A DNA stretch of 64,000 nt from Escherichia coli (GTDB lineage Bacteria; Pseudomonadota; Gammaproteobacteria; Enterobacterales; Enterobacteriaceae): the NCBI RefSeq assembly GCF_011045215.1, contig NZ_CP049201.1; one strand, given 5' to 3'. Shown in pieces: positions 8,286 through 56,788 of this stretch; within the stretch, counting starts at the first letter, position 1, and each line of letters begins with the position of its first letter. A program made the position numbers and the translations under genes. The notes under the pieces were generated by a model. It saw only the letters and a program-made list of their open reading frames with translations. It ran no database searches and had not been told where the DNA came from.

Positions 8286-9680
8286 ATGCCATTTAAAAAA
8301 CTCTCCCGACGCACCTTCCTGACGGCAAGCTCCGCGCTTGCCTTCCTCCATACCCCTTTCGCTCGCGCACTTCCCGCCCGACAAAGCGTTAACATTAACG
8401 ACTACAACCCACACGACTGGATCGCCTCATTTAAACAAGCCTTCGGCGAAGGGCAAACGGTCGTCGTGCCTGCCGGATTGGTTTGCGACAATATCAACAC
8501 CGGCATCTTCATTCCTCCTGGCAAAACGTTACACATCCTTGGAAGCCTGCGCGGCAACGGCAGAGGGCGATTTGTCTTACAGGACGGTAGCCAGGTGACA
8601 GGGGAGGAGGGCGGCAGTATGCATAACATCACCCTGGATGTGCGTGGCTCTGACTGCACCATCAAAGGGCTGGCGATGAGCGGCTTTGGCCCGGTAACGC
8701 AGATTTATATCGGCGGCAAAAACAAACGGGTCATGCGCAACCTGACCATCGATAACCTCACTGTCAGCCACGCTAATTACGCCATCTTACGCCAGGGATT
8801 TCATAACCAGATAATCGGTGCCAACATCACCAATTGTAAGTTCAGCGACTTACAGGGCGATGCCATTGAATGGAACGTGGCGATTAACGACAGTGATATT
8901 TTGATATCTGACCATGTCATCGAGCGCATCAACTGTACCAACGGCAAAATCAACTGGGGCATTGGCATAGGCCTTGCGGGAAGCACTTACGATAATAATT
9001 ACCCGGAAGATCAGGCAGTGAAAAACTTTGTCGTGGCGAATATCACGGGATCGGATTGTCGGCAGTTGATCCATGTTGAAAATGGTAAACATTTTGTTAT
9101 TCGTAATATCAAAGCCCGCAATATCACGCCGGATTTCAGTAAGAAAGCAGGTATTGATAACGCCACGGTCGCTATTTACGGTTGTGATAATTTCGTGATT
9201 GATAATATTGAAATGATTAATAGCGCCGGGATGTTAATCGGCTATGGGGTAATTAAAGGCAAATATCTCTCGATACCGCAAAATTTCCGAGTGAATAATA
9301 TTCAACTGGATAATACCCACCTTGCTTACAAATTGCGCGGTATCCAAATCTCCGCCGGGAATGCTGTCTCCTTTGTGGCGCTGACTAACATTGAGATGAA
9401 GCGTGCGTCGCTGGAGTTACACAACAAACCGCAACATCTTTTTATGCGTAATATCAATGTGATGCAGGAATCCTCTGTTGGACCCGCATTGAGCATGAAC
9501 TTCGACATGCGCAAAGACGTTCGCGGCGTCTTTATGGCGAAAAAAGAAACACTGCTGTCTCTTGCAAATGTTCATGCGGTGAATGAAAGAGGGCAAAGCT
9601 CCGTCGATATCGACAGGATTAATCACCATATTGTTAATATGGAAAAGATTAACTTTAGATTGCCAGAACGGAGGGAGTAG
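8286..9680 (+). CDS. wcaM: Colanic acid biosynthesis protein WcaM, 464 aa
   Basis: ORF track; signal-peptide-like N-terminus; last gene of wca cluster. Confidence 0.88.
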
Positions 9681-9837
9681 ATTTGCGACCATTCATAAAC
9701 TTACTGGATATAATGTTCTAAAAGATTATAATCCTCACACTAACTGTTAAAGCTGGGGCTGGGCAGCATTGACTACTCAGGGAAGGTACTCATCTTTATC
9801 TTGTGTTTCTTACGTAACAACCAGACTAAAGTGATTT

Positions 9838-10833
9838 ATGAACGATAACGTTTTGCTCATAGGAGCTTCCGGATTCGTAGGAACCCGACTACTTGAAACG
9901 GCAATTGCTGACTTTAATATCAAGAACCTGGACAAACAGCAGAGCCACTTTTATCCAGAAATCACACAGATTGGCGATGTTCGTGATCAACAGGCACTCG
10001 ACCAGGCGTTAGCCGGTTTTGACACTGTTGTGCTACTGGCAGCGGAACACCGCGATGACGTCAGCCCTACTTCTCTCTATTATGATGTCAATGTTCAGGG
10101 TACCCGCAATGTGCTGGCGGCCATGGAAAAAAATGGCGTTAAAAATATCATCTTTACCAGTTCCGTTGCTGTTTATGGTTTGAACAAACACAACCCTGAC
10201 GAAAACCATCCACACGACCCTTTCAACCACTACGGCAAAAGTAAGTGGCAGGCGGAGGAAGTGCTGCGTGAATGGTATAACAAAGCACCAACAGAACGTT
10301 CATTAACTATCATCCGTCCTACCGTTATCTTCGGTGAACGCAACCGCGGTAACGTCTATAACTTGCTGAAACAGATCGCTGGCGGCAAGTTTATGATGGT
10401 GGGAGCAGGGACTAACTATAAGTCCATGGCTTATGTTGGAAACATTGTTGAGTTTATCAAGTACAAACTGAAGAATGTTGCCGCAGGTTATGAGGTTTAT
10501 AACTACGTTGATAAGCCAGACCTGAACATGAACCAGTTGGTTGCTGAAGTTGAACAAAGCCTGAACAAAAAGATCCCTTCTATGCACTTGCCTTACCCAC
10601 TAGGAATGCTGGGTGGATATTGCTTTGATATCCTGAGCAAAATTACGGGCAAAAAATACGCTGTCAGCTCAGTGCGCGTGAAAAAATTCTGCGCAACAAC
10701 ACAGTTTGACGCAACGAAAGTGCATTCTTCAGGTTTTGTGGCACCGTATACGCTGTCGCAAGGTCTGGATCGAACACTGCAGTATGAATTCGTTCATGCC
10801 AAAAAAGACGACATAACGTTTGTTTCTGAGTAA
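9838..10833 (+). CDS. gne: NAD-dependent epimerase, UDP-N-acetylglucosamine 4-epimerase-like (Gne), 331 aa
   Basis: ORF track; N-terminal GASGFVG Rossmann motif and YGKSK catalytic motif; position between wcaM and galF as in strains carrying gne. Confidence 0.8.
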   Translation: MNDNVLLIGASGFVGTRLLETAIADFNIKNLDKQQSHFYPEITQIGDVRDQQALDQALAGFDTVVLLAAEHRDDVSPTSLYYDVNVQGTRNVLAAMEKNGVKNIIFTSSVAVYGLNKHNPDENHPHDPFNHYGKSKWQAEEVLREWYNKAPTERSLTIIRPTVIFGERNRGNVYNLLKQIAGGKFMMVGAGTNYKSMAYVGNIVEFIKYKLKNVAAGYEVYNYVDKPDLNMNQLVAEVEQSLNKKIPSMHLPYPLGMLGGYCFDILSKITGKKYAVSSVRVKKFCATTQFDATKVHSSGFVAPYTLSQGLDRTLQYEFVHAKKDDITFVSE

Positions 10834-11075
10834 TGCAGACGAGTCAGAGAAAAAAGGACCAGGTTGGACTACGATTATTCGGAAAGAGGTACTGATTAAA
10901 TTATCAGTATGCGGAATTCCGAGTAATCCGAGTAACCCAGATGCTGATGGTGTGTAGTGTTATTCTAAGGTTTAAGCAAAGTTATGCGGAACTAAGCTTT
11001 GGTATATAGCCATAACGTTTGGCTAACCTATGGCAATAATTTACGCACTATCAGCCACTTAGAGGTAGGAAAAGA

Positions 11076-11969
11076 ATGACGAATTTAAAAGCAGTTATAC
11101 CGGTAGCAGGTCTTGGGATGCATATGTTGCCTGCCACTAAGGCGATTCCCAAAGAGATGCTACCGATCGTCGACAAGCCAATGATTCAGTACATTGTTGA
11201 CGAGATTGTGGCTGCAGGGATCAAAGAAATCCTCCTGGTAACTCACGCGTCCAAGAACGCAGTCGAAAACCACTTCGACACCTCTTATGAATTAGAATCT
11301 CTCCTTGAACAGCGCGTGAAGCGTCAACTGCTGGCGGAAGTACAATCTATCTGTCCGCCGGGCGTGACCATTATGAACGTGCGTCAGGGTGAACCTTTAG
11401 GTTTAGGCCATTCCATTTTGTGTGCACGACCCGCCATTGGTGACAACCCATTTGTCGTGGTGCTGCCAGACGTTGTGATCGACGACGCCAGTGCCGACCC
11501 GCTGCGCTACAACCTTGCTGCCATGATTGCGCGTTTCAATGAAACGGGCCGTAGCCAGGTGCTGGCAAAACGTATGCCGGGTGACCTTTCTGAATACTCC
11601 GTTATTCAGACCAAAGAGCCGCTGGATCGTGAAGGCAAAGTCAGCCGCATTGTTGAATTTATCGAAAAACCGGATCAGCCGCAGACGCTGGACTCAGACA
11701 TCATGGCCGTTGGTCGCTATGTGCTTTCTGCCGATATTTGGCCGGAACTTGAACGCACTCAACCTGGTGCATGGGGACGTATCCAACTGACTGATGCCAT
11801 TGCTGAACTGGCGAAGAAACAGTCCGTTGATGCCATGCTGATGACTGGTGACAGCTACGACTGCGGTAAAAAAATGGGCTATATGCAGGCGTTTGTGAAG
11901 TATGGACTGCGCAACCTGAAAGAAGGGGCGAAGTTCCGTAAAGGGATTGAGAAGCTGTTAAGCGAATAA
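11076..11969 (+). CDS. galF: UTP-glucose-1-phosphate uridylyltransferase subunit GalF, 297 aa
   Basis: ORF track; conserved GalU/GalF N-terminus; conserved 5' flank of O-antigen locus. Confidence 0.92.
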
Positions 11970-12227
11970 TGAAAATCTGACCGGATGTAACGGTTGATAA
12001 GAAAATTATAACGGCAGTGAAGATTCGTGGTGAAAGTAATTTGTTGCGAATATTCCTGCCGTTGTTTTATATAAACAATCAGAATAACAACGAGTTAGCA
12101 ATAGGATTTTAGTCAAAGTTTTCCAGGATTTTCCTTGTTTCCAGAGCGGATTGGTAAGACAATTAGCGTTTGAATTTTTCGAGTTTAGCGCGAGTAGGTA
12201 ACGCTAGTCACATCGTAGACATGTAAG

Positions 12228-12268
12228 CAGTGCTCTGGTAGCTGTAAAGCCAGGGGCGGTAGCATTGT
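12228..12268 (+). promoter_or_regulatory. JUMPstart element with ops (RfaH-dependent antitermination) site; ops GGCGGTAGCAT at about 12255..12265
   Basis: CAGTGCTCTGGTAGCTGTAAAGCCAGGGGCGGTAGCAT matches the conserved JUMPstart upstream of O-antigen clusters; ops differs from K-12 GGCGGTAGCGT at one position. Confidence 0.7.
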
Positions 12269-12618
12269 TCTTGATATTTTTAAGTATAAAAATGACACAT
12301 AAAAATAAAATAATTAGTTATCGGTATGTTTTTAATTGTGTTATTATTGAAAAATATCACCATTAATTATTTAATGCGATAAAGGCCAAATAAATCACTC
12401 ATTTATTTCTACATAGGATAGGGGACTATCAGATGGGAATTAAATAAAAATCCAAGTGCTAAATATTTCAATCTTAAATTCCATTGTAAAAAGTTTAAGG
12501 GATTTTATTCTAAAAAAGAATTGGATGAATTGAAAGTTATTTTGAGCTTAATTTATTAAACTTGAAGTTTTTTTACTGAGTTTTTCTGAAAAATAATTTA
12601 TTGTTAATGGAGCCATAT

Positions 12619-13638
12619 ATGTCAATTTTAGTTACCGGAGGTTGTGGTTATATAGGTGTCCACACAATTTATACGTTAATTTCTCAGGGCTACGATGTTA
12701 TTGTACTGGATAACCTGACTAACTCATCAATAGAGTCATTAGAGAGAGTCAAGTTAATGACAAATCATAACATACCCTTTTATAAAGGAGATGTGGGGAA
12801 TAAAAAAATATTGGTAGACATATTCAATGAGCATCAAATAAAAGCGGTTATGCATTTTGCAGGCTTGAAATCAGTAAGTGAATCTATAAAAAAACCGATT
12901 GAATATTATTCAAGTAACGTAATGCAAACGTTATCACTAATATCTACAATGATAGAGTATAACGTAAAAAGCTTTATCTTTAGTTCATCTGCTACTGTAT
13001 ATGGTAAACCAAAGTTATGCCCTATAAATGAAACTCATCCTATTGGCAAAACTACAAATCCTTATGGAACATCAAAATTAATGATGGAGTTAATGTTGTC
13101 TGATTTGTGTAATGCATATGATGATTTTAATGTGACAATTTTACGATATTTTAATCCAATTGGTGCTCATGAATCAGGTAATATTGGTGAACATCCAAAC
13201 GGTATACCAAATAACCTATTTCCTTATCTTACAAAAGTTGCTATTGGAGAGTATCCTTATTTAAAAGTGTATGGTTGTGATTACCCAACGTCTGATGGTT
13301 CTGGTGTTCGAGATTATATTCATGTAGTTGATCTTGCTGAAGCACATGTAAAAGCTTTATCAAAAAATTCAGAGTCGACTGGGCTAAAAATTTATAATTT
13401 AGGAACCGGAAAAGGATATTCTGTACTCGAAGTTATAGAAGCTTTTGAAAAGATAACTGGAATCAAAATACCATATAAAATTATGCCTCGAAGGGATGGT
13501 GATGTTGCGGAGTGTTGGTCTGATAGCACGAAGGCAAATGATAAATTAGAATGGAAAGCAAACAGAGAATTATATGACATGATTAGAGACGCTTGGAATT
13601 GGCAATCAAAAAATCCTCATGGTTATGATAATACATGA
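12619..13638 (+). CDS. UDP-glucose/UDP-hexose 4-epimerase (GalE family), 339 aa, low GC
   Basis: ORF 12601..13638; start at ATG 12619 preceded by GGAG; GGCGYIG Rossmann motif, YGKPK-like catalytic region. Confidence 0.8.
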   Translation: MSILVTGGCGYIGVHTIYTLISQGYDVIVLDNLTNSSIESLERVKLMTNHNIPFYKGDVGNKKILVDIFNEHQIKAVMHFAGLKSVSESIKKPIEYYSSNVMQTLSLISTMIEYNVKSFIFSSSATVYGKPKLCPINETHPIGKTTNPYGTSKLMMELMLSDLCNAYDDFNVTILRYFNPIGAHESGNIGEHPNGIPNNLFPYLTKVAIGEYPYLKVYGCDYPTSDGSGVRDYIHVVDLAEAHVKALSKNSESTGLKIYNLGTGKGYSVLEVIEAFEKITGIKIPYKIMPRRDGDVAECWSDSTKANDKLEWKANRELYDMIRDAWNWQSKNPHGYDNT

Positions 13639-14003
13639 TGTTATAGTATATTCAATGAATATAATTTATGCTTTGGAGTAAAAGTTGTCACAGCGTTTTC
13701 TTGCAGAACTAAGATGTTTTTAGCATAATTAGACACAGAATTAAAAATATTATCAGGCCGTATCAGTACATATCTTCAGTATGCACTATCATATATTAAT
13801 ATGAGAAAATATTTGTATTTAAAATATGATGTTCTAATAAGATTAAATTAACTGCCTAGGATATTAAAAGCTAATTTGGACTAGCTTTATTAGATAAGTA
13901 AATCTAACAAAATATTACTATGTCCGATATGTTATACCACTATTAATGACATCATGTAATATTATTTTAATAAACTATTTTTTGATCGCAGAGGTAATTA
14001 TAA

Positions 14004-14399
14004 ATGAGAAGAGTTATCACCTTTGGAACATTCGACGTGTTTCATATTGGACATGTTAATATATTAAAAAGGGCGAAGGAGTTTGGTGATTTGCTGATTG
14101 TGGGAGTTTCATCCGATTCATTAAATTTTTCTAAAAAACAGCGTTATCCAATCTATAGCCAGGAGGAGCGCATTGAGATTATATCCTCACTTAAGTTTGT
14201 AGATCATGTCTTTATAGAAGAATCTTTAGATCTTAAGTTAGAATATATTAGAAAGTATGAGGCAAATTTACTTGTAATGGGAGATGATTGGAAGGGCAGA
14301 TTTGACTGGGTTAAAGATGAGTGCGAAGTTATTTATTTGCCCAGAACACCATCGATATCAACTACCGAGATTATAGAAATTGTCCGGAGAATAAAATGA
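14004..14399 (+). CDS. Glycerol-3-phosphate cytidylyltransferase (TagD-like), 131 aa
   Basis: ORF track; TFGTFDVFHIGH nucleotidyltransferase motif (HxGH) and RTPSISTTEII C-terminal motif. Confidence 0.8.
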   Translation: MRRVITFGTFDVFHIGHVNILKRAKEFGDLLIVGVSSDSLNFSKKQRYPIYSQEERIEIISSLKFVDHVFIEESLDLKLEYIRKYEANLLVMGDDWKGRFDWVKDECEVIYLPRTPSISTTEIIEIVRRIK

Positions 14400-14471
14400 T
14401 AACTCATTTGTTGATAGTGATTTATATTGTATAATTAATATTATGTAAAATGATATATATGGCAAATACAA

Positions 14472-15773
14472 ATGACGTCATGTAATAACTTTAAAAAGTA
14501 TAAAACATTATCTTTATTATCCGTGTGTTTATCCTCTATTCGTGTCTTTTTGGGGCCAATAACATTACTTGTACTAGCCAAAAACCTTTCCACTGAGGAA
14601 CTAGGATTTTATTATGCTTTTTTTTCGTTAACAGCAATGGCACAGTTGCTGGAAGTTGGGATGTCTAGCGTATTGAAACAGTATTATAGCCATTCTTATG
14701 CTATTCATGATATCAGTGAAAAAAATATAAAAATATCGAACTATTTTAACTTTTCAATCTATTGGTATTTAATATTATCAATACTTTTTTTTATATTGGG
14801 AGGGGTGGTGTCATATGTTATGTTTAATGATTATAACGGAATAGTTAACTGGAAATTACCATGGTTTTTTTTGCTTTTTGTTTCATGTACTAATTTATTA
14901 GTATTGCCCTTAAATGCAATGCTTGATGGAACACAAAGGCAACAATTATTGATGAAAGCTAATATTGTTAGTCAGTTAATGATAGCGATATCATTATGGC
15001 TGACAATTTATTTAGGCTTGGGGCTATATTCTCTTGGTCTATCACAATTGGTAGGAATATTATTTTTTTTACTGTCAGTTTTTATATTTAATAAATGTAG
15101 ATTCCAGTTCATAGAAATACATAAAAAAAACTTTTCATTTAAAACAGTATTTAATGAGTTGTGGCCGTTATTGAAAAAAACTAGTATCGTATGGTTTCTT
15201 GGTTATTTCTACTGGAACGGTTTTAATATAATATCATTTAAATATCTTGGTGCAGAGATCGCAGGCTTCGTTGGTATGTCGATGTCAATTATGCGAGCGG
15301 GACAGAATATAGCAATATCTATTTTGAATTCTCAGATGACATTGTATGCAAGCAATATTGCGATGGGAAAGATTGATGAAGCAAGAAGAGTATTTAAGAA
15401 ATATTTTATCATTTCATTTTTGTTATTAATTTCTGGTTACTCAATATTTTATATTTTCTATTATGTTAAGCCTGATTTTTTCTTGTTTAAGAAGGTCCTG
15501 CCCTTAGAACAAATGATTTATGTGTCAATATTTTTTGCCTTTACATTTATAATATCAGGAACTGAAACTTTTATTCGTTGTTTTAAAGTGGAGAAGTTCG
15601 TTATCACTCAGACAATCAATTCAATTTTAACTCCATTCTTATTTGTTTTGGGGCTTAACTTGCATTATCAATATTTTTGTTTACCAATAATATCTGTACT
15701 GATAGTGTCAATCTTAACGTTATATATAAGTCGACGTTTTTACACGGGGTATTCGAATGCAAAAAATACTTAA
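14472..15773 (+). CDS. wzx: O-antigen flippase Wzx (polysaccharide transporter family), 433 aa
   Basis: ORF track; very hydrophobic, multiple predicted TM segments, AT-rich codon usage. Confidence 0.6.
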   Translation: MTSCNNFKKYKTLSLLSVCLSSIRVFLGPITLLVLAKNLSTEELGFYYAFFSLTAMAQLLEVGMSSVLKQYYSHSYAIHDISEKNIKISNYFNFSIYWYLILSILFFILGGVVSYVMFNDYNGIVNWKLPWFFLLFVSCTNLLVLPLNAMLDGTQRQQLLMKANIVSQLMIAISLWLTIYLGLGLYSLGLSQLVGILFFLLSVFIFNKCRFQFIEIHKKNFSFKTVFNELWPLLKKTSIVWFLGYFYWNGFNIISFKYLGAEIAGFVGMSMSIMRAGQNIAISILNSQMTLYASNIAMGKIDEARRVFKKYFIISFLLLISGYSIFYIFYYVKPDFFLFKKVLPLEQMIYVSIFFAFTFIISGTETFIRCFKVEKFVITQTINSILTPFLFVLGLNLHYQYFCLPIISVLIVSILTLYISRRFYTGYSNAKNT

Positions 15774-16929
15774 GTATATAATGAAATTAATGATGTGGAG
15801 TATTTATCCTATCGGTTTTTTAATTAAAAGGGATAAAAGCATTTGGCTTTTCGGTAGTTATAGCGGTTTTACTGATAATAGTCGATATTTATTTGAATCT
15901 ACCACTAAAAAGAATGATGTAAGATGCATTTGGATATCTGATGATATAAAGCTGATAAAAAAAATTAGATGTAAAGGTTATGAGGCATATTACAAATATA
16001 GTGTTAAAGGTATATATTTTTGTTATATTGCAAAGGTGTATATATATTCAAATTATGTATCAACGATAAACTTTTATACATCTGCAGGCGCGGTATTGGT
16101 AAATTTATGGCATGGGACGCCACTTAAAAAAATCGAATATGATATATCTAAATCTCCTTTATTTAATTATTTTAAAGGAGCCTCATTTATAATTAAAATA
16201 TTGATGCCTGAGAAACATAAAAAGTGTAATTTCATTCTTGCTCCGAGTCAATTTGTTTATGATTATTCATTTAAAAGTGCATTTAGGGTGTATGATATGC
16301 AATATGCCATTATTGCTGATCCACCTAGGATATCTAATCTCTTATCAAGAGCCTATCACAAAGTGAATAATGATAAGAATTCAATTAAAAAAACAAAGAA
16401 AACATTTTTATATGCACCAACATGGAGAGATGATCGCTCGGATTTTATAAGTATTTCAGGTTTAAATTTCAACGAAATTAATAATTTTCTATTAAAAAAT
16501 AACGCGTATTTACAAATCAGGTTGCATCCTAATACAACTTTAAATATTGATATGAGTGAAATGGAAAATATTCACATTGTTGATAATTATGAACCAGCTG
16601 AAGATAGTATGCTAAATTCTGATTTTCTCATAACTGATTACTCTTCAATATATTTTGACTACCTCTATCTTAATAGACCTATAATCTTCTTCCCATTTGA
16701 TCTTGAAAAATATACCGCATCGCGTGATTTTTATTTGAGTTATAACGAAGCAACTCCAGGGGTTAAAGTATATAATCAAGGTGAATTAATCCAGGAGATG
16801 GATAACCTATTGAAGGGCATTGACAATTGGATGAACTATCGAAAGGAGCTTGCTGAAAAATTCTGTTCGCTCGAAAGACGTAACGATGATTATATCATAA
16901 AAAAAATTAAAAAAGGTGTATCTGAATGA
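15757..16929 (+). CDS. CDP-glycerol glycerophosphotransferase (TagB/TagF family), 390 aa
   Basis: ORF track; YAPTWRDD motif typical of TagF-type enzymes; adjacent to TagD-like gene. Confidence 0.7.
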   Translation: MQKILKYIMKLMMWSIYPIGFLIKRDKSIWLFGSYSGFTDNSRYLFESTTKKNDVRCIWISDDIKLIKKIRCKGYEAYYKYSVKGIYFCYIAKVYIYSNYVSTINFYTSAGAVLVNLWHGTPLKKIEYDISKSPLFNYFKGASFIIKILMPEKHKKCNFILAPSQFVYDYSFKSAFRVYDMQYAIIADPPRISNLLSRAYHKVNNDKNSIKKTKKTFLYAPTWRDDRSDFISISGLNFNEINNFLLKNNAYLQIRLHPNTTLNIDMSEMENIHIVDNYEPAEDSMLNSDFLITDYSSIYFDYLYLNRPIIFFPFDLEKYTASRDFYLSYNEATPGVKVYNQGELIQEMDNLLKGIDNWMNYRKELAEKFCSLERRNDDYIIKKIKKGVSE

Positions 16930-17732
16930 ATCTTGGTAAAATTATAAATTATATAGAGTCTAAGGTTATTAGTATAAATTTTGATTTCAATCATTTAGCT
17001 GGCTATTTAAGTCGTGATGAGCGAGATAAAATAACCTTAAAACATCTAAGCAGTATTATTGATAGAAGAAAAAAACATCCATCTGTTTCTGCTATATACA
17101 GAGTGAAAAATGGAGCTCAATTTATTGAACTATCTATTCTTTCAATAGCTGCATTTTGTCGTGAAATAATTATTGTAGACAATAATTCAACAGATGATAC
17201 TTTACTAATAGTAGAACGTCTTAAAAGCGAACTTCAGGAAATATGTGAAATTAAAATCTATCAGTATACTAGTCAGGTCGCTTTGGCGGGTAAGAATTAT
17301 AATGATGAAATCAGAAAATATCCTGAGCGGTCATTGGCAAAATATTATAACTATGCTTTTTCATTGGCAACATCGGAATTCTTAATGAAGTGTGATGCTC
17401 ATTATATATTCACACCTGCGGGTATAGATAGTATACAACGAAAATTAATTTCAAATCATAAGTCAGTTGATGTTATATGTTATCGTGGCACCGAAGTATT
17501 TGGAGCCATGTTAGATTGTGAACCCTATCTAATACGGAAAAATAGTTTTAAATATTACGACACTCAATATTTTGAACGTTTGACATTAAACAAGAAGAGA
17601 AGTTTTATTCAAAAAATTAAAGGGAGAATTTCATCACCTTGCTTTATACATGTTAAACGTTTGAGTTATGTTAAGTCAGTTCATCTATGTGAAATAAACC
17701 CTGTGGAGTATATGTATAAAAATGATAATTAA
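16926..17732 (+). CDS. Putative glycosyltransferase (GT-A fold-like), 268 aa
   Basis: ORF track; IIIVDNNSTDDT-like segment resembling GT2 DXD region; assignment weak. Confidence 0.45.
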   Translation: MNLGKIINYIESKVISINFDFNHLAGYLSRDERDKITLKHLSSIIDRRKKHPSVSAIYRVKNGAQFIELSILSIAAFCREIIIVDNNSTDDTLLIVERLKSELQEICEIKIYQYTSQVALAGKNYNDEIRKYPERSLAKYYNYAFSLATSEFLMKCDAHYIFTPAGIDSIQRKLISNHKSVDVICYRGTEVFGAMLDCEPYLIRKNSFKYYDTQYFERLTLNKKRSFIQKIKGRISSPCFIHVKRLSYVKSVHLCEINPVEYMYKNDN

Positions 17733-18951
17733 ATTACATAATATTTGCGTAACTGGGAAGAATGATAATCATGACGGGTCTTTTCGCCTACAAATATACT
17801 ATTTCCTATGTATTTTAATATCTATTCTATTTTTCAGTGCATACCCTTTGGTATCGTTACCTCTTATAGCTCTTTCAAGTCCATTTGTTAATAACTATGC
17901 AAGATGGACTATGTCACTATTAATGATTTTTTATTTTATTTTATTATACTCATCTATTACGCCTTTTTCAGACATAGCAGAGTATATGCTTATCTATAGA
18001 GGAGTAACCGATGTTGATATATTTAGTTTTGGTAGGTTTGGTGGTGGAATCGAGATCTTCATATTAGCTCTCATGCGCTTGGTGTATTTTATATCCGATG
18101 GCAATGAATATCTTTTTTTATTTTTTTGCTTTACTATTATTCAAATATTTCTTTTTGTATTTTGTTATCGTGTTAATCGTCGTTTATCATGTTTATATTT
18201 TTTAGTATTTAATCTTTCATATGCTTATTATTCTTTTAATGCATATTTTTTACGAAGCATGTTATCCGCGGTTTTTTTAATTAATGCCTTTTTGTTTATT
18301 TCTAAAAAAAAGTATGTGTATTATTTTTTTGCAATTATATCGCATTTGTCATCCGTCCTATATATAGGAGTATGGGAATATTTAAGGGCAAGAAATAAAA
18401 AATTAAAAATATGGGTTGCTAGTATGGCAACTGTAACTATTATATGTTGTTTTATTTTTTTGCGAGATAGGATTGAATTTTATTTATTTAAAAGCTCTGG
18501 AAATTCGATGGGGTATGTACAAGTTGTAACCATTGCTTTTAATTATATTTTGTGTTTGTTGTTATTATTCTTTTCAAATGCAAGAAAAGAATTGTCAACT
18601 CAAAGAATAATATTGTTTTTGACTTTTTTCTTTATCTTGGCCTTGGTAACTTATAAAATACCACAAAATTTTGGGATAAGAATCTCTATTTTGCTTTACG
18701 CACTATCACCGTTTTTCTTGTATCCACTTCTTACCTCCTGCAATGTAACAATATTAAATAAGATCAAATCGTTGTCTCTTTATATGATTGTTAACTGTTG
18801 CTTTCTCTTTGTTGTGTTATATAAGGGCGATGATATTTCAAATCACATGCGTTCAAATCCATTAGATACTAGTTTTATTGATTTATTAATAAAGGACATA
18901 GATTATTTTGTTAAAGGATATTATCCAGTAATATATTCTAGAGACGAATAA
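17722..18951 (+). CDS. wzy: O-antigen polymerase Wzy, 409 aa
   Basis: ORF track; extremely hydrophobic polytopic protein with rare codons inside O-antigen cluster. Confidence 0.55.
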   Translation: MIIKLHNICVTGKNDNHDGSFRLQIYYFLCILISILFFSAYPLVSLPLIALSSPFVNNYARWTMSLLMIFYFILLYSSITPFSDIAEYMLIYRGVTDVDIFSFGRFGGGIEIFILALMRLVYFISDGNEYLFLFFCFTIIQIFLFVFCYRVNRRLSCLYFLVFNLSYAYYSFNAYFLRSMLSAVFLINAFLFISKKKYVYYFFAIISHLSSVLYIGVWEYLRARNKKLKIWVASMATVTIICCFIFLRDRIEFYLFKSSGNSMGYVQVVTIAFNYILCLLLLFFSNARKELSTQRIILFLTFFFILALVTYKIPQNFGIRISILLYALSPFFLYPLLTSCNVTILNKIKSLSLYMIVNCCFLFVVLYKGDDISNHMRSNPLDTSFIDLLIKDIDYFVKGYYPVIYSRDE

Positions 18952-19238
18952 GGGACATTGTTTAGATGTGCAAGGTGGAAATGTATCAAAGAAAATTGTA
19001 GTTACTACAGTAACAGTTACTTTGTAAAGTATATTTCGGTAAAACCTGCAATAACCAAGGGCGCTAAACTCCCTAACAACTCCGCTAATGGAATTAGAAT
19101 TAGAGAGTGACGAGTTTAAATATGAGAGTTTAGGGTAATAGAACAAATTTTTAAGTTTATAGAGTAAGAACAGATTAAGTTAAGTTTGCTTATTTTATAA
19201 TAAGCTCTTTCTTAAACCATATATAGTATTATCTACAA

Positions 19239-19961
19239 TTGAGTGATATCAAATTGAATATTGAGATCGGTTTATCAGCGCTGAATTCAGGAATTTATAA
19301 AATTAAATTTCGTAATGATTATAATTATCTTATTATTCATCAGATTACTGATGAATGTGATTACTCTGATTATGTGGCATCTTTCCCTGAAAATGTTAGA
19401 TACATATCTTCATATGAGTCTGGGTTGTCCAAAAGTCGAAATATGGCCATTGAAAATGCAAAATACGATTATCTTTGGTTAATGGATGATGATATGGAAA
19501 TAGATGATGCGGCTTGGGATTATCTGACGAAATTTATTAGTGATTATAAAAATAGTCCTTTGCTGGTTGTTTCTCATTCATTGGCAAAAAAGTATAATAA
19601 TGAAAAAGAGAGGATTAAAAGATTGAATCCTATAACTGCTGCGGGAATTTGTTCTGTAGATATGATATTAAAAATTTCAGCACTGGACGGTATTAGATTT
19701 AACTCAGATTTTGGGTTAGGAGCTAAATATCCTTCCGGTGAGGAATATATTTTTGCATGTGATTTGATGAGAGCTGGAAAAAAAATATATAAATCTAATA
19801 AAATTTGCTCGAATCATCCTGACACGACTTCTAGTGATAAAACATATCCAAATAAAGACGCTTTTAGTACGAAGAAGAAAATGTTTAAAGTCGCAAATGG
19901 GAAATACTTAGGGAGCATTTTGTATATTGCTTTTGTTGTCAAAAAATTACTATATAAATAA
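19239..19961 (+). CDS. Glycosyltransferase family 2-like, about 240 aa (start uncertain; ORF begins at TTG)
   Basis: ORF track; SKSRNMAIENA...LWLMDDDMEID resembles GT2 DXD region. Confidence 0.5.
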   Translation: MSDIKLNIEIGLSALNSGIYKIKFRNDYNYLIIHQITDECDYSDYVASFPENVRYISSYESGLSKSRNMAIENAKYDYLWLMDDDMEIDDAAWDYLTKFISDYKNSPLLVVSHSLAKKYNNEKERIKRLNPITAAGICSVDMILKISALDGIRFNSDFGLGAKYPSGEEYIFACDLMRAGKKIYKSNKICSNHPDTTSSDKTYPNKDAFSTKKKMFKVANGKYLGSILYIAFVVKKLLYK

Positions 19962-20005
19962 TAATTTACATAATTTTATTTTTATATAATCTATTTATTG
20001 TCTAG

Positions 20006-21052
20006 ATGCCTATGAAAAAAGTATATATTTTTATTGATGATATATCCCGTTCCGGTGGCACAGAACGAGTTGCGACATTTCTCTCTAATCAAATGTTTTT
20101 ATCCGGATTTTCAGTCACACTAATATCATTAGCATTAGAAGGAGGGAATACATACTATCCGCTGCAACCCGGAGTCAAGTTAGAGGTTTTAAGTGAATCA
20201 ACATTATACGAATTGTTTCTTTTTTTAAGAAAAAATTCATGTGATGTGTTGATTTCTGTTTCCATGGGTAGTTTATCGTTTAAGCTTGCATGTTTACATT
20301 TTCTATTACGATTAAAATCTCGTCTTATTTTAAGTGAGCATGTGGCTTTTGAATCCTCATCAAAGTTCATTCGTTCTCTAAAATGGTTAAGCTATCAATT
20401 CGCTGATGATCTTGTATTATTGACAAAGCATGATTATAAATTGCTTAAGTCAAATGTTAGGGCTCATACTCACGTTATCAATAATGCTAGTGGTTTCGAA
20501 CAATTATCTGAATCTGTTCTTATTCAAAAGCAAAAGATAGTATTAGCAGTGGGACGTTTAACTTATCAGAAGGGGTTTGATAGGTTAATTCGTATTTGGG
20601 CTTCCATATCGGACAATCACGGTTGGGTTTTACGGATCGTAGGGGATGGAGAATTGCGTTCAGAACTACAAAAAATGATTGTTGACCTGAATGTTACACA
20701 TAATGTCCAACTTATACCAGCAACAAAATGTATAGAACAAGAATATACTAATGCAGCTATATTAGCTATGACTTCTCGCTATGAAGGACTACCATTGGTT
20801 CTTATAGAGGCTAAATCTTTTGGATTAGCAGCAGTCGCTTTTGATTGTAAAACAGGTCCTGCTGAAATTATTCATCACAAAAAAGATGGGTTCTTGATTA
20901 CTGAAGATAATGAACCTGAATTTTCATATCGTCTTCAGTCTTTAATGATCGATGATGTTTATCGAAACAAAATACAAAGTATGGCCTTAAGAAATGCTAA
21001 TGATTATTCTGTTGAAAAAATAAGTCGGCAGTGGTTGGAGTTAATATCATGA
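20006..21052 (+). CDS. Glycosyltransferase family 4 (group 1), 348 aa
   Basis: ORF track; VGRLTYQKGFD and EGLPLVLIEAKSFGLAAVAFD motifs (GT4 EX7E region). Confidence 0.75.
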   Translation: MPMKKVYIFIDDISRSGGTERVATFLSNQMFLSGFSVTLISLALEGGNTYYPLQPGVKLEVLSESTLYELFLFLRKNSCDVLISVSMGSLSFKLACLHFLLRLKSRLILSEHVAFESSSKFIRSLKWLSYQFADDLVLLTKHDYKLLKSNVRAHTHVINNASGFEQLSESVLIQKQKIVLAVGRLTYQKGFDRLIRIWASISDNHGWVLRIVGDGELRSELQKMIVDLNVTHNVQLIPATKCIEQEYTNAAILAMTSRYEGLPLVLIEAKSFGLAAVAFDCKTGPAEIIHHKKDGFLITEDNEPEFSYRLQSLMIDDVYRNKIQSMALRNANDYSVEKISRQWLELIS

Positions 21053-21837
21053 GTAGTTATGAAACAGTATCTATAATCATGCCTACGTTTAATGCTGCAT
21101 CTTATATTTCGTATAGCATCATTTCTGTAATTGAACAATCATATAATGATTGGCATTTATATATAATAGATGATGGTTCAACTGACAATACCGCACATGA
21201 AATATCTAATTTTACCGATCTGCGAATAACATATGTAATGCTTCCTATCAATAGTGGAGTTGCAAATGCTAGAAATATAGGTATTAAAATGGCAAAAGGG
21301 AAATTTATTGCGTTTCTTGATAGTGATGACATTTGGGAAAAAGAAAAATTATCCTTGCAAATCCCTTTACTCGAAAAAGGATATGATGTAGTTTGTTCAA
21401 ATTATGCCATTTTTAAAAATGAACCAAAAAAAATAATCGGTTCTCGAACTGCACCACAACAGATCACCTATTCGCGTTTGTTACGCGGTAATTGTATCGG
21501 CAATTTAACGGGGATTTATAACCGAGAACGACTAGGTAAATGCTTACAGGAAGAATGTGGACATGAAGACTATCTAATGTGGTTACAGTTGGTAAAGCTT
21601 TCTGGTAGCGCTTATTGCATACAGAAAAATTTAGCCCGGTATCGAGTTACGGAACATTCAGTATCATCAAATAAATTAAAAGCAGCATTTTGGCAATGGA
21701 ATATATATCGTAAAAAACTCAAGCTTAATATTTTGAGCAGTATATATTACTGGTGTAATTATTCTTTTTACGCATTTATGCACATGTTAAAAATGAAGTT
21801 TCATGTGAATAAAAGTAATCTAATATATAAGAGATAA
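21049..21837 (+). CDS. Glycosyltransferase family 2, 262 aa
   Basis: ORF 21031..21837; start at ATG 21049 after GGAG; VSIIMPTFN and FLDSDD motifs. Confidence 0.8.
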   Translation: MSSYETVSIIMPTFNAASYISYSIISVIEQSYNDWHLYIIDDGSTDNTAHEISNFTDLRITYVMLPINSGVANARNIGIKMAKGKFIAFLDSDDIWEKEKLSLQIPLLEKGYDVVCSNYAIFKNEPKKIIGSRTAPQQITYSRLLRGNCIGNLTGIYNRERLGKCLQEECGHEDYLMWLQLVKLSGSAYCIQKNLARYRVTEHSVSSNKLKAAFWQWNIYRKKLKLNILSSIYYWCNYSFYAFMHMLKMKFHVNKSNLIYKR

Positions 21838-22085
21838 CAAGATATATAGTGTTAATTGTCACCTTCATTATATAAAGTAGATTAATTTGCGATGGTGACT
21901 TTTACATTAACATCGAAGTAAATATTGAGATAAATATTATACAATATTAATAATATGTTATGAATTTAAATTTTATTTTGAATTGCCCAATAATATTTTT
22001 TTAAATTATTACTTTAAGTAGTCATTTTAGGTTAATATATTACCGTTAAGCAAACCATGCAGTATATTACTGACAGGAGTAAACA

Positions 22086-23492
22086 ATGTCAAAGCAACAG
22101 ATTGGCGTCGTCGGTATGGCAGTGATGGGGCGCAACCTTGCGCTCAACATCGAAAGCCGTGGTTATACCGTCTCTATTTTCAACCGTTCCCGTGAGAAGA
22201 CGGAAGAAGTGATTGCCGAAAATCCAGGCAAGAAATTGGTTCCTTACTTTACGGTAAAAGAGTTTGTTGAATCTCTGGAAACGCCTCGTCGCATCCTGTT
22301 AATGGTGAAAGCAGGTGCAGGCACGGATGCTGCTATTGATTCTCTCAAGCCATACCTCGATAAAGGTGACATCATCATTGATGGTGGTAACACCTTCTTC
22401 CAGGACACCATTCGTCGTAACCGTGAGCTGTCTGCAGAAGGTTTTAACTTTATCGGTACTGGTGTTTCCGGTGGTGAAGAAGGTGCACTGAAAGGACCTT
22501 CCATCATGCCTGGTGGCCAGAAAGAAGCCTATGAACTGGTTGCACCGATCCTGACCAAAATCGCCGCAGTGGCTGAAGATGGGGAGCCATGTGTTACCTA
22601 TATTGGTGCCGATGGTGCTGGTCACTATGTGAAGATGGTTCACAACGGTATTGAATACGGAGATATGCAACTGATTGCTGAAGCCTATTCTCTGCTAAAA
22701 GGTGGCCTGAACCTCACCAACGAAGAACTGGCGCAGACCTTTACCGAGTGGAATAACGGTGAACTGAGCAGCTACCTGATCGACATCACCAAAGATATCT
22801 TCACCAAAAAAGATGAAGACGGTAACTACCTGGTTGATGTGATTCTGGATGAAGCTGCAAACAAAGGTACGGGTAAATGGACCAGCCAGAGTGCGCTGGA
22901 TCTCGGCGAACCGCTGTCGCTGATTACCGAGTCTGTGTTTGCACGTTATATCTCTTCTCTGAAAGATCAGCGCGTTGCCGCATCTAAAGTTCTCTCTGGC
23001 CCGCAAGCGCAGCCAGCAGGCGACAAAGGTGAGTTCATCGAAAAAGTTCGCCGTGCGTTGTATCTGGGCAAAATCGTTTCTTACGCCCAGGGCTTCTCTC
23101 AGCTGCGTGCGGCGTCTGAAGAGTACAACTGGGATCTGAACTACGGCGAAATCGCGAAGATTTTCCGTGCTGGCTGCATCATCCGTGCGCAGTTCCTGCA
23201 GAAAATCACCGATGCTTATACCGAAAATCCGCAGATCGCTAACTTGCTGTTGGCTCCATACTTCAAGCAAATTGCCGATGACTATCAGCAGGCGCTGCGT
23301 GATGTTGTTGCTTATGCAGTACAGAACGGTATCCCGGTTCCCACCTTCGCCGCTGCGGTTGCCTATTATGACAGCTACCGTGCCGCTGTTCTGCCTGCGA
23401 ACCTGATCCAGGCACAGCGTGACTATTTCGGTGCACATACTTATAAGCGCATTGATAAAGAAGGTGTGTTCCATACTGAATGGCTGGATTAA
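22086..23492 (+). CDS. gnd: 6-phosphogluconate dehydrogenase, decarboxylating, 468 aa
   Basis: ORF track; [22 protein letters not shown]-terminus; conserved 3' flank of O-antigen locus. Confidence 0.95.
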
Positions 23493-23518
23493 TCTTATTT
23501 AACTAACAATAAATTGAG

Positions 23519-23549
23519 GCCTGGCGTATATTGCGCCGGGCTTTTTTTT
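23519..23549 (+). terminator. Rho-independent terminator downstream of gnd
   Basis: GC-rich hairpin GCCTGGCG...CGCCGGGC followed by T8; approximate coordinates. Confidence 0.5.
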
Positions 23550-23730
23550 GCCAATTATCTTATAGACTAAATTTCACTGCTTAATATTAACTTAATAAAT
23601 ATCAGCTATTCTTATAAAGAAAATCTGAATTGTTTTTCGTTGCGTTGACCATCTGACAACGTAGCGTTAAAACTTTTAGCTCTTATCAGGATGCTAAAAA
23701 CATCATGATTCACAGTTAAGTTAATTCTGA

Positions 23731-24906
<1,176 letters not shown>

Positions 24907-25049
24907 CATCATGTTATCAGGGCGATTTTCGCCCTGATTCTCTTATGTTCCCTTTGTAATAATTCATTTTTTTTATCATTTATCCTATAGCATTCATGGC
25001 GATTATCGCTAAACTATGGCGACTTAAAATTATTTCGTCCGTTAGGGTA

Positions 25050-26030
25050 ATGATGAGAGTAGAAAATAATAATGTTTCTGGGCAAAACCATGACCCGGAA
25101 CAGATTGATTTGATTGATTTACTGGTGCAGTTGTGGCGTGGCAAGATGACAATTATCATCTCTGTCATTGTGGCTATTGCCCTGGCTATAGGGTATCTGG
25201 CCGTTGCCAAAGAAAAGTGGACTTCCACAGCTATCGTTACTCAACCTGATGTGGGGCAAATCGCTGGTTATAACAATGCCATAAATGTGATTTATGGTTC
25301 GGCAGCGCCGAAAGTGTCTGAGATCCAGTCGATGTTAATTGGTCGTTTCAGCACGACATTTTCTGCATTAGCAGAAACGCTGGATAATCAGGAAGAACCT
25401 GAAAAACTGACCATTGAGCCTACCGTTAAAAATCAGTCATTACCTTTAGCGGTTTCTTATGTGGGTGAAACACCTGAAGGTGCGCAGAAACAGCTGGCGA
25501 AGTATATCCAGCAAGTTGACGACCAGGTAAATGAAGAACTGGAACAAGACCTGAAAGACAACATCGCGCTGCAAATGAAAAACTTGCAGGATTCTCTGAA
25601 GACCCAGGAAGTGGTTGCGCAGGAGCAGAAAGATCTGCGTATCCGTCAGATTCAGGAAGCGTTGCAGTATGCGAATCAGGCGCAGGTGACAAAGCCGCAG
25701 ATTCAGCAGACACAGGACGTAACCCAAGATACTATGTTCCTTTTGGGGAGCGAAGCGCTGGAGTCGATGATTAAGCACGAGGCGACTCGTCCGTTGGTGT
25801 TCTCATCAAACTACTATCAGACTCGTCAAAACCTGCTGGATATCGACAATCTTGACGTTGATAAACTTGATATTCATGCTTACCGCTATGTAATGAAACC
25901 GACGTTACCTATTCGTCGCGATAGCCCGAAAAAGGCAATTACCTTGATTCTGGCGGTGCTGCTGGGCGGCATGGTTGGCGCGGGGATTGTGCTGGGGCGT
26001 AACGCTCTGCGTAATTACAACGCGAAGTAA
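25050..26030 (+). CDS. wzzB: O-antigen chain length determinant WzzB (Cld), about 326 aa
   Basis: ORF 24996..26030; start placed at the MMRVENNN methionines (25050 or 25053); two TM ends with coiled-coil middle. Confidence 0.88.
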   Translation: MMRVENNNVSGQNHDPEQIDLIDLLVQLWRGKMTIIISVIVAIALAIGYLAVAKEKWTSTAIVTQPDVGQIAGYNNAINVIYGSAAPKVSEIQSMLIGRFSTTFSALAETLDNQEEPEKLTIEPTVKNQSLPLAVSYVGETPEGAQKQLAKYIQQVDDQVNEELEQDLKDNIALQMKNLQDSLKTQEVVAQEQKDLRIRQIQEALQYANQAQVTKPQIQQTQDVTQDTMFLLGSEALESMIKHEATRPLVFSSNYYQTRQNLLDIDNLDVDKLDIHAYRYVMKPTLPIRRDSPKKAITLILAVLLGGMVGAGIVLGRNALRNYNAK

Positions 26031-26053
26031 TCTTTTCGGTTTTAAAGAAAAAG

Positions 26054-53246: not shown

Positions 53247-54140
53247 AAAGCGGTAGAAAAAGTTAAGTTCCCGGTTGATCGAATGGATGCGAATCGCTGA
53301 TCGAACTTCGATGCCAATCCGTGATCGAATAGAGCGGAATACGCATTCTGCCATTACCCACAATGCGCGGTTGAGCTTAATATCGGTGTCGATGTTGTGA
53401 ATGGCACGGGTGTGGATACGTTTTCCTTTTGCACTGCGGCCGGAAATCCCGCCTTTCAGCATATTCTCCTGGATGGTCTGATAAGTACTCCACAGGTCCT
53501 TACCGTAATCCTCCCGGCGTCGTGGCGTCAGAATGTCGGCGGTGGTGACGGGCCGATGTTCGTCACCATAACGGTAAGTCAGTGCCGCCTGTGCCAGCGC
53601 CTGGCGTGCCGGTGGCGGCAGGACCAGCGACTGCATGGCATCACGCTTCTCCTCTATCCGGTCAAACACGCCCACCACCTCGTAAGCCCCTTCAATGACT
53701 CTGTCCACCACATTTCCCCGATGCGGAACACGCACTTCCCCCAGAGACTGACCACAGACGCATCCGTTCTGACAGACGAACCTGAAGTAACCCGGCAGCA
53801 TCTGGTAGCTGGAGGTACCGTCATGGGAGTTGAGCAGAATGATTTCAGGGACATGTTCTCCGTTTATCTCTCCGGCCCGCCGCAGACGCAGCATGTGTTT
53901 TGTGTATCCCCGGCGGCCCGGGTCGCGCACACGGGTCTGGCAGGCGAAGAATGGCTGAAAGCCTTCCCGCTGCAGGCTTTCCAGTACGGTGATGGTGGGG
54001 ATGTACGTATAGTTCTGGCTTCGGGACGTGTGTTTCTCTTCCCCGAAAATCCCCGGCACATAGTGCATCAGTTCTTCGTGTGTCAGCGGACGGTCACGGC
54101 GTATCTGGTTCGCATAACCAAAACGACTGGCTAGTCGCAT
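53169..54140 (-). pseudogene. DUF932 (YafZ/YfjQ-family) gene with 3' end replaced by IS21-family terminal sequence
   Basis: ORF 53169..54140; first about 260 codons look like YafZ family (MRLASRFG...KLNRAL); after about 53356 the reading frame runs into the IS end and continues as unrelated sequence. Confidence 0.7.
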
Positions 54141-54297
54141 AATTTGCTCCTTATCGGTGGTTAAGATTTACTGGTGTAATAAATGAAAAAGCCACGTCTC
54201 CCGGAGAAGACGCGGCCTGACAGATGAAATGAATGACGTTTATTGTCTGAGAAGCCCTTAACTGGCGAGCTGAGTATTAAGCTGTGTTCCGGCATCA

Positions 54298-54489
54298 CTA
54301 GCGCAACTGACCTTCAGCATTACGGATAACCAGCCGGGAATATGTTCCCTGGTCATCTTCAGTAAACACATTGCGGTAAGCTGTTTTGACGACAACAGCC
54401 TGTTCGCGTGAGAAAGGGCCTTCGGGCAATAAACGTGATGTACAACCCGGCATATCTGTTGCTCCCTGAAAGTAAAAGGCCCCGGTCAT
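54298..54489 (-). CDS. Hypothetical small protein, 63 aa (doubtful)
   Basis: ORF track only; lies between the Ag43 remnant and the yafZ-like gene; no recognisable motif. Confidence 0.2.
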
Positions 54490-54523
54490 GATGACCGGGG
54501 CCTGAAGGAGAGTGACCTGATTA

Positions 54524-54595
54524 TCAGAAAGTCACATTCAGCGTGGCCTGACCGTTATAACCTTCAGCGCTGCTGCCGCTGACGCTGTGGGCATA
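54524..54595 (-). pseudogene. flu: 3'-terminal remnant of an autotransporter gene, consistent with antigen 43 (flu)
   Basis: Minus strand encodes [23 protein letters not shown]-stop, a typical autotransporter beta-barrel C-terminus ending in Phe; upstream reading frame is unrelated. Confidence 0.6.
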
Positions 54596-54754
54596 CCGGC
54601 AGGTACAAAACAGCATGGTCAGATAAAGTGGTTTTTCCCGGACATAAATGCTTCCCCTCTCTCATCCGCCAGAGAAGTATCAGTCCGTTGTGTGCAATTC
54701 CGTTCTGCATGATGAAGAGATTCAGCTGCCTTTTCGCAGACCATTAACCACTAT

Positions 54755-54800
54755 AAACGATCGATAGTAACGATCGATACCTGTTTTATCGATCGTTTTA
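54755..54800 (-). promoter_or_regulatory. Cluster of three GATC (Dam) sites in repeated AACGATCGATA motifs; resembles the agn43 phase-variation operator
   Basis: AACGATCGATA twice in direct orientation 13 bp apart plus inverted ATCGATCGTT, directly downstream of the YeeP-like GTPase gene where flu lies in CP4-44. Confidence 0.55.
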
Positions 54801-54912
54801 TTCTATTAACAGCAAGGCAGTCACGCAAGAGAAAGAGGTGGATATGAGGGGGTTGTGTCATGTTTTCAGTTGGTTAACGCAATGTAATCAGGCATTTCCC
54901 CTGGCAGACTGT

Positions 54913-55785
54913 TCAGAAGAAAATCCAGTTCCATACAGCGCGGGCAACAGAGACCACCGAGTCACGGACGGCACGCAGAACCGTGCGTGCAACAGAGGCA
55001 ATACAGACGCTCTCCGCCGTGTCAAATATCCGGTCCACCGCACCGGTAAACTGTTCACGGGCCTGAGACCGGACAGATTCCGTGCGCAGCTCGTCCTGCA
55101 GGCGGGTCATCAGGGGACTGGCGGCATGGTCGGGAAGCGCTGTCATGAGCGCACTGACCAGCATATCCAGTTCCCAGCCGGTGCAGGCCGATACGGCCAC
55201 AACCGGATGTACGGGCCGGAAGAGCCGGAATACCGCATCTGTTTTCTCACGAATGTTCTGTGCCTGTGCGGGAGAAGGCTGAATGCCGGCCATATCCCAT
55301 TCATGGCAGGGCTCCGTTTTGTCGGCCTGCGTCACCACAAACAGCACCTGCTGATGTCCCCGGTGCAGGATGTGTCGCCAGAAATACTCATCCACAGACA
55401 GGGCACGGTCATCGGCTTTAATCAGCCACAGTACCAGGTCAAGTTCAGGCAGAATGTCACGGTACAGGGCTTCATACTCTGCATCCCTGTCCCGGCTCTC
55501 GCCCACCCCGGGCAGGTCAGTGATAACCATGCTGTGACCGTGGCCACTCAGACGGAAGCGCTGCACTTCCCGGGTGCCGGCGTGAACATCACTGACCGGG
55601 GTGACCTCCCCCTGAAACAGTGCATTACAGAGTGAGGATTTACCGGCCCCGCTTTTACCCATAATGCCAATCACGGGTTCGTGACTGGTGAGTTTGCGCA
55701 GATGTTCCAGGATGTGACGGGAAAGTGAGTAAGGCAGGGAGGAGAGCGGTTTTTCAATTGCCTCAATGGCATCAGACGGATTCAT
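54913..55785 (-). CDS. yeeP: YeeP/YkfA/YfjP-family GTPase, 290 aa
   Basis: ORF 54913..55848; start at MNPSDAIEA; G1 motif GKSGAGKSS, G3 DLPG, G4 TQAD. Confidence 0.85.
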   Translation of the reverse strand: MNPSDAIEAIEKPLSSLPYSLSRHILEHLRKLTSHEPVIGIMGKSGAGKSSLCNALFQGEVTPVSDVHAGTREVQRFRLSGHGHSMVITDLPGVGESRDRDAEYEALYRDILPELDLVLWLIKADDRALSVDEYFWRHILHRGHQQVLFVVTQADKTEPCHEWDMAGIQPSPAQAQNIREKTDAVFRLFRPVHPVVAVSACTGWELDMLVSALMTALPDHAASPLMTRLQDELRTESVRSQAREQFTGAVDRIFDTAESVCIASVARTVLRAVRDSVVSVARAVWNWIFF

Positions 55786-55800
55786 ACATGTATTCCCGGT

Positions 55801-55842
55801 GAAAAAAGACAAAACCCCCGCACACCGGAAAGGTGGCGGGGG
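55801..55842 (-). terminator. Rho-independent terminator downstream of the frameshifted cargo gene
   Basis: Minus strand CCCCCGCCACC-TTTCC-GGTGTGCGGGGG followed by TTTTGTCTTTTTT; lies between stop at 55870 and GTPase start. Confidence 0.7.
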
Positions 55843-55869
55843 ACTCACGGAGATAATATATGTCTGAAA

Positions 55870-56788
55870 TTATCTGGAATGTCGGTACCTTTTATACTCT
55901 TCAACAATCAGGTCATGCAGCATTTCGCCGGTACTGAGTCTTCTGACCCTCGATAATTCTTTGAGCTGCGCCCTGGTTTCTGCGTCAAGAAAAAACTGTA
56001 CATTGACTTTATCTTCCTGCATTTTTTTGTACTTGCGCTGCGCCTTGGCCTTATTGAAACTGTTTCTGAAATTTTTTATATCGTCAGGTGAGGTGAGTGG
56101 ACAGGTAACCCATATGTCAAATGAAAGGTGAATTGCGTGGTAAATATCAGCAGAACCAGGAAAACTGGCCAGTTTTTCCAGTGCAATATTTTTTCCCTTC
56201 AAATAATTCCATGTCCATATGCATTCATGTTCGTTCTCCGGGAGGAGGTAACTGAAAGGACTCTTTGATTTAAATGCCCGCATCCATCTGTCTTTGGTCT
56301 GGATTATCCACTCATCCCGCAAATTCTTATCAGAAAGAATATCGAGAACTCTGAGTATTTGTCTGAACTGTGTCGATGAGTCCGACGGGAAGGCATTCCC
56401 TTCCAGATACTCTTCTTTAAGATACAGTTTATTCTTTTGAAGCAAGTCTGCGCTTATTTTTGCCCTGTTATTCTGGATAAACTGCATCAACAGATACCAG
56501 GAAAATAAGCATGCGCGTTCACTGCCCGCGATCCAGGATATTTTTTCCAGGGGGACCAGGAAGGCCAGGGCCTTCAGACGCATACCAGAAATTATTTGTT
56601 CAAGTTCAAAATCTGAAAGTGTGATGTTCAGATTTTCTCTGTTTTTTTTTTATGTAAGCGATAAAACGTTCCGGGGGATCATAAACATTAAGGGGCAGTA
56701 CGGAGATATTACGCTCTCCAAGATAATAAGAGTAATACGCATTTGTTCTTTCATTCATAACCTTATCCGACAAAATTTTCTGAACCAT
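55870..56788 (-). pseudogene. AT-rich uncharacterised gene split by a frameshift in an A10 tract; reconstructed product about 305 aa with C-terminal ribbon-helix-helix-like region
   Basis: ORFs 56606..56788 (60 aa) and 55870..56583 (237 aa) are on the same strand; the downstream frame stays open back to the A/T run at 56642..56651; removing one A fuses them; start ATG at 56788 has GGAGA upstream; C-terminus VNVQFFLDAETRAQLKELSRVRRLSTGEMLHDLIVEEYKRY has a beta-strand plus two-helix RHH pattern. Confidence 0.55.

Follow-up and report, generated by a model that had tools for sequence, protein, structure and literature searches.

What is the substrate of the epimerase-family protein encoded between wcaM and galF in this Escherichia coli strain, and at which step of O-antigen synthesis would it act? 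The open reading frame that raises this question encodes 331 amino acids, starts with ATG and lies on the + strand at 9838..10833 in the ORF listing of the 64-kb window (the whole stretch of DNA analyzed here). Its neighbors, both also on the + strand, were identified by profile matches as wcaM, the final gene of the colanic acid cluster (8286..9680; NF007517, 1024 bits), on the left, and galF (11076..11969; TIGR01105, 689 bits) on the right. The ORF and the flanking matches agree with the initial annotation, which had described a 331-aa epimerase gene at this place under the name gne.

The gene had also been described as absent from K-12 at this position, and this was confirmed by the length of the wcaM–galF spacer, which is 1395 bp in the window vs 174 bp in K-12. 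Homology to K-12 breaks ~16 nt past the wcaM stop codon and returns ~10 nt ahead of the galF ATG. The spacer to the left of the ORF (9681..9837, + strand, 36.9% GC) shares only its first ~16 nt with K-12, and the spacer to the right (10834..11075, + strand, 40.5% GC) could be aligned to the K-12 galF upstream region in its last ~10 nt only. At least 80% of window positions 9600-11100 was present in 1306 of 5426 complete E. coli genomes, and in the remaining ones mostly just the wcaM tail was matched. In the same E. coli genome search, one or two matches to the region from wcaM to galF sat on records classed as plasmids. In E. coli strain PI7 (NZ_CP074033.1, 4239-4949), the gene survives as a pseudogene whose C-terminal end is missing, galF is absent and just a short remnant of an O-antigen cluster remains ahead of gnd.

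The GC content of the ORF was 45.2% (GC3 48.8%), compared with 30.3% for the O-antigen genes, 50.8% for galF, 53-54% for wcaK/wcaL and 47.7% for the whole window. The value is therefore intermediate, far above the O-antigen cluster and below the flanking housekeeping genes. The earlier statement that the gene has a normal GC content unlike that of the AT-rich O-antigen genes held for the second half of the comparison, whereas "normal" overstates a value lower than that of galF and wcaK/wcaL.

All 331 of the 331 residues of the protein are identical to those of RefSeq WP_000999466.1 from E. coli O157:H7 strain Gim1-1, and it is also fully identical to Sakai ECs_2847 (Z3206), the comparison that had been proposed as a check. 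RefSeq gives WP_000999466.1 the product name N-acetyl-alpha-D-glucosaminyl-diphospho-undecaprenol 4-epimerase, most sources in the protein collection agree, and the same CDS carries a RefSeq annotation in other genomes too. We take this enzyme, Gnu, to be EC 5.1.3.26. It is used in glycoengineering for GalNAc-initiated glycans in E. coli. At the nucleotide level, 9 differences separate the gene from the Sakai allele, all of them synonymous and at third positions. The O157:H7 gene occupies the same wcaM–galF locus on the same relative strand, and the difference between the two loci lies in the adjoining cluster, which is O81 in the window and not O157.

In O157, the gene upstream of galF was originally assigned as gne, and the clade to which it belongs, clade D of Cunneen et al. 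2013, was renamed gnu (PMC3682973). The part of that paper that summarizes Rush et al. 2010 describes the O157 enzyme as inactive on UDP-GlcNAc and as turning UndPP-GlcNAc made by WecA into UndPP-GalNAc (PMC3682973). Based on the complete protein identity and on this literature about the O157 substrate, the ORF at 9838..10833 is very probably gnu, encoding a UndPP-GlcNAc 4-epimerase that would make the first O81 sugar; the RefSeq name, the Pfam match, the motifs and a structural model described below point the same way. The name gne, with the nucleotide-sugar substrate that it implies, was accordingly not retained, given that the source passage assigns the identical protein to the lipid-linked sugar. 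In part, then, the closest homolog does have a specificity other than the one first supposed, namely for UndPP-GlcNAc and not UDP-GlcNAc according to that same passage (PMC3682973). The gene itself is already known, and there is nothing new in the E. coli gene; the value of the finding is that of an annotation correction only, as the name gne leads to an incorrect substrate and an incorrect view of how the pathway works. Under the corrected reading, the O unit would acquire its first GalNAc on the lipid carrier after WecA has acted, and not from UDP-GalNAc.

The tie to GalNAc-containing O antigens that the initial annotation had proposed is borne out by the literature. In 104 of 115 serogroups, the chemistry of the O unit agreed with the presence or absence of gnu (Cunneen et al. 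2013, PMC3682973), and the review of Liu et al. likewise links gnu to O antigens that contain GalNAc (PMC7685785).

The sequence and predicted fold of Gnu are those of an extended SDR enzyme. The Pfam Epimerase profile (PF01370) matched the product at E=8.5e-31, with 3-beta-HSD as the next-best Pfam match. The motifs GASGFVG (residues 9-15), TSS (107-109) and Y132-G-K-S-K136 were present, and in an alignment of 89 full-length family members G9, G12, G15, S108 and Y132 were invariant and K136 nearly so. An AlphaFold2 model built from the 89-member alignment (pLDDT 96.8, pTM 0.93) was closest to solved UDP-GlcNAc and UDP-Gal 4-epimerases, at a TM of ~0.75 and an identity of ~20%; none of the solved structures searched was that of a Gnu-family member. 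From the fold, the conserved Ser108/Tyr132/Lys136 and the Rossmann motifs, we infer that Gnu would work as a GalE-type NAD+-dependent 4-epimerase. Gnu has its extended-SDR fold, Rossmann motif and Ser/Tyr/Lys set in common with GalE/Gne (clade A, TIGR01179), and presumably also the NAD+-dependent 4-keto chemistry.

This chemistry does not come with membership of the GalE/Gne family. Gnu scored 71 bits on TIGR01179 (GalE), for which the cut-off is 262, and 56 bits on NF007956, for which it is 394, and its identity to the GalE-like protein encoded elsewhere in the window was 26% over 192 aa. Given the TIGR01179 score below cut-off and this level of identity, Gnu falls outside the GalE/Gne clade. 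No NCBIfam model matched Gnu at or above its cut-off. Overall, Gnu differs from GalE/Gne both in sequence (~20-26% identity) and in substrate, which according to the literature is a lipid-diphosphate sugar in contrast to a UDP-sugar.

The best partial family matches were HpnA, LegB and OleD, and the best sequence matches among solved structures were 8rdg, a generic SDR entry, followed by NSDHL (6jkg). Lipid-acting extended SDRs (HpnA, OleD and 3-beta-HSD/NSDHL) are hence found among the best partial matches, although Gnu scores far under the cut-offs of these families and is not a member of them. The resemblance is a hint that lipid-substrate handling may be shared. Counting against a lipid substrate, no membrane-spanning segment was found in Gnu, its most hydrophobic stretch (residues 5-23) being the Rossmann strand.

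We then considered the O-antigen cluster that Gnu would serve. The AT-rich region at 12000-22050 is 99.6-100% identical to 10 complete genomes in which the wzx and wzy annotations name the O81 family, and by this match the serogroup of the window is O81. In 10/10 of these O81 genomes, gnu, galF and the GalE-like gene occur in the same arrangement. A JUMPStart element at 12228..12266 (+ strand), recognized by sequence match and including ops (GGCGGTAG at 12255-12262), signals where the O81 O-antigen operon begins. Because this element separates galF from the opening gene of the O81 cluster, gnu, which like galF is upstream of it, lies outside the O-antigen operon proper. This is the usual placement of gnu in Enterobacteriaceae, immediately ahead of galF and not within the O-antigen cluster. 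A second exact copy of the ops-like octamer GGCGGTAG occurs on the + strand at 41935-41942, remote from any polysaccharide operon, and probably matches by chance.

The O81 cluster begins with a GalE-like gene, as the initial annotation had stated (12619..13638, + strand, 32.9% GC; TIGR01179, 443 bits), and the reading frame of this gene stays open upstream as far as a TTG at 12601. At the megablast level, with other serogroups checked, the gene was confined to the 10 O81 genomes. Its product has 51% identity to K-12 GalE and carries Cys299 in place of the gatekeeper Tyr299; the Y299C GalE entries 1lrk/1lrl score a little higher against it than the wild type does. Human GALE has a cysteine, Cys307, at the gatekeeper position, and the Y299C mutant of E. 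coli GalE gains activity on N-acetylated substrates. Pocket size decides whether UDP-GlcNAc fits, according to the passage of PMC3682973 that refers to Bengoechea et al. 2002. On account of its GalE clade and its cysteine gatekeeper in place of Tyr299, the product is predicted to be a Gne-type UDP-Glc/UDP-GlcNAc 4-epimerase, and the gene probably encodes a true Gne or else an enzyme with both GalE and Gne activity.

At the other end of the cluster, the last O81 glycosyltransferase gene (21049..21837, + strand) encodes a GT2 enzyme with a DxDD motif (DSDD at 91). It has 48% identity over 243 aa (E=2.6e-64) to O157 Sakai ECs_2845, which is annotated in Sakai as 'glycosyl transferase' only and which we take to be WbdN. 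Enzymes of the GT2 family with this DxDD motif add Gal or Glc in a beta1-3 linkage onto GalNAc or GlcNAc (PMC4202792). The WbdN-like GT2 is a candidate for the addition of the second sugar onto HexNAc-PP-Und. The annotation of the O81 cluster contains no gene for an initiating transferase. The linkage made by the O81 polymerase has been described as ambiguous (PMC10920833), and no O81 entry appears in the supplementary material of Cunneen 2013 or of Liu 2019. Within the cluster, window positions 14004-16929 encode a small cytidylyltransferase (131 aa) and a protein of the CDP-glycerol glycerophosphotransferase family, which together imply a glycerol-phosphate substituent on the O81 unit.

Around gnu, at window positions 8892-11500, the ancestry is mosaic. 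Compared with O81 strain LR-03, 45 of 50 differences fell within 8892-11468, which comprises the 3' half of wcaM, gnu and the 5' half of galF, and just 5 were spread across 11469-26050. In the comparison with an O174 strain, 9750-11250 was identical and the flanks were ~5% different. This distribution of differences indicates a recombination junction inside galF, at ~11470-11500. By sequence, the gnu allele of the window is the O157/O174 allele, unlike that of the other O81 genomes.

Such a history would allow a working Gnu for which O81 has no need, carried along as a passenger when the wcaM–galF flank was moved by recombination. The 11 sites within the ORF that differ from LR-03, the ancestry of the segment, distinct from that in other O81 genomes, and its identity to the O174 strain fit this reading, and Cunneen et al. 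list 10 serogroups with a gnu or gne gene that the structure does not predict (PMC3682973). Set against this, an intact gnu is carried by the window and by each of the 10 complete O81 genomes, none of the 9 changes relative to the O157 allele alters the protein, and the cluster is annotated with a WbdN-like GT2 and without an initiating transferase gene of its own. We therefore give the passenger reading a very small chance.

Even less can be said for the assignment made before 2010 and followed in the initial annotation, in which the ORF would encode Gne in the classical sense, a soluble enzyme that interconverts UDP-GlcNAc and UDP-GalNAc and supplies UDP-GalNAc to WecA or to the transferases. 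Database labels and structural neighbors speak for it: the Sakai record of the identical protein ECs_2847 retains "gne: UDP-galactose 4-epimerase", some members of the family in databases carry the name UDP-N-acetylglucosamine 4-epimerase, and the nearest solved folds are the UDP-GlcNAc and UDP-Gal 4-epimerases mentioned above. These labels conflict with the inactivity of the identical O157 protein on UDP-GlcNAc, as summarized in PMC3682973, and with the position of the ORF outside the GalE/Gne clade. Moreover, the O81 cluster already has a GalE/Gne-clade gene with a cysteine gatekeeper, and in O86 both genes are required, which implies that their functions differ (PMC3682973). A classical Gne is thus barely credible here.

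The position of gnu next to wcaM could also suggest an additional gene of the colanic acid operon. The two genes are separated by 157 bp on the same strand, and a promoter-like site (TGGATA-16-TATAAT) is found in this spacer at 9705-9732. Scans around gnu returned 9 promoter sites vs 7.3 in shuffled sequence and 3 terminators vs 2.9, with no excess in either case, so the site at 9705-9732 counts as a consensus match only. The colanic acid polymer, to our knowledge, contains no GalNAc, and its synthesis is initiated by WcaJ with glucose. Although the short same-strand spacer, in which the scan found no terminator-like site, would suit an operon extended beyond wcaM, we rejected this reading as having practically no chance of being correct, because the colanic acid cluster often occurs without gnu (wcaM lacks this neighbor in K-12 and in about three quarters of the complete E. 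coli genomes, and in K-12 and most genomes galF comes directly after wcaM) and because the presence of gnu follows O-antigen chemistry (PMC3682973).

With gnu read as the UndPP-GlcNAc 4-epimerase gene, the following pathway can be proposed for O81. WecA, encoded elsewhere, would build UndPP-GlcNAc at the cytoplasmic face of the inner membrane. Gnu would invert C4 of the lipid-bound GlcNAc to give UndPP-GalNAc, with which the O81 repeat unit would start. In this step, tightly bound NAD+ would oxidize C4 to a 4-keto intermediate, which would then be re-reduced from the opposite face. The O81 glycosyltransferases would extend UndPP-GalNAc, the WbdN-like GT2 probably acting earliest. The galE-like product would be a separate nucleotide-sugar epimerase and the source of UDP-Gal and/or UDP-GalNAc for later residues; if the corrected reading is true, this AT-rich gene should provide UDP-Gal or UDP-GalNAc for an internal residue. 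The pathway predicts that the O81 repeat unit begins with GalNAc, and both the need of O81 for Gnu and the order of the transferases are inferred.

The closest parallel to this arrangement is O86, whose gne1 and gne2 (now gnu and gne) are placed in the same way, gnu ahead of galF and the gene for a GalE-clade epimerase at the head of the O cluster (PMC3682973). For O86, the need for both genes was shown by knockout, and the O86 structure has two GalNAc residues (PMC3682973); O81 is likened to it by gene layout. Since O81 has gnu plus a separate gene of predicted Gne type, two epimerization steps, one of them with the sugar on its lipid carrier and the other with a UDP-sugar, are plausible by analogy with O86, as had been suggested at the outset from the presence of the two genes.

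The Gnu family extends well beyond E. coli O-antigen loci. A search of 1.84 billion representative proteins returned 365 clusters at E<=1e-30, including four fusions with a GT4 glycosyltransferase and one with a PF02397 initiating phosphoglycosyltransferase (proteins P0050, P0057, P0098, P0099 and P0158; loci L009, L010 and L011). The fusion proteins come from metagenome contigs of uncultured bacteria and are located in polysaccharide gene clusters, and one of the fusions was found in two independent samples. They would fit an action of the Gnu family between initiation and the second transfer. Based on the Gnu domains fused to GT4 and PF02397 enzymes, we tentatively raise the possibility that lipid-carrier epimerization occurs widely and that a physical link can join it to the opening steps of repeat-unit assembly, a generalization that for now we hold to be on the doubtful side. 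The PF02397 fusion adjoins PglD-, DegT- and PglF-like genes of a bacillosamine-type pathway, so that in this one case the substrate may differ from GlcNAc.

In the remainder of the window, colinearity with O81 strain LR-03 ends past the his operon and the yeeZ-tmaR genes, at 44234-64000. LR-03 has ISApl1-mcr-1 at the corresponding place, and no alignment longer than 300 bp was found between the window and that segment. Positions 44234-64000 instead match an island of other genomes that contains an Ag43/AIDA-type autotransporter, cbtA/cbeA-like genes, IS21 and IS110.
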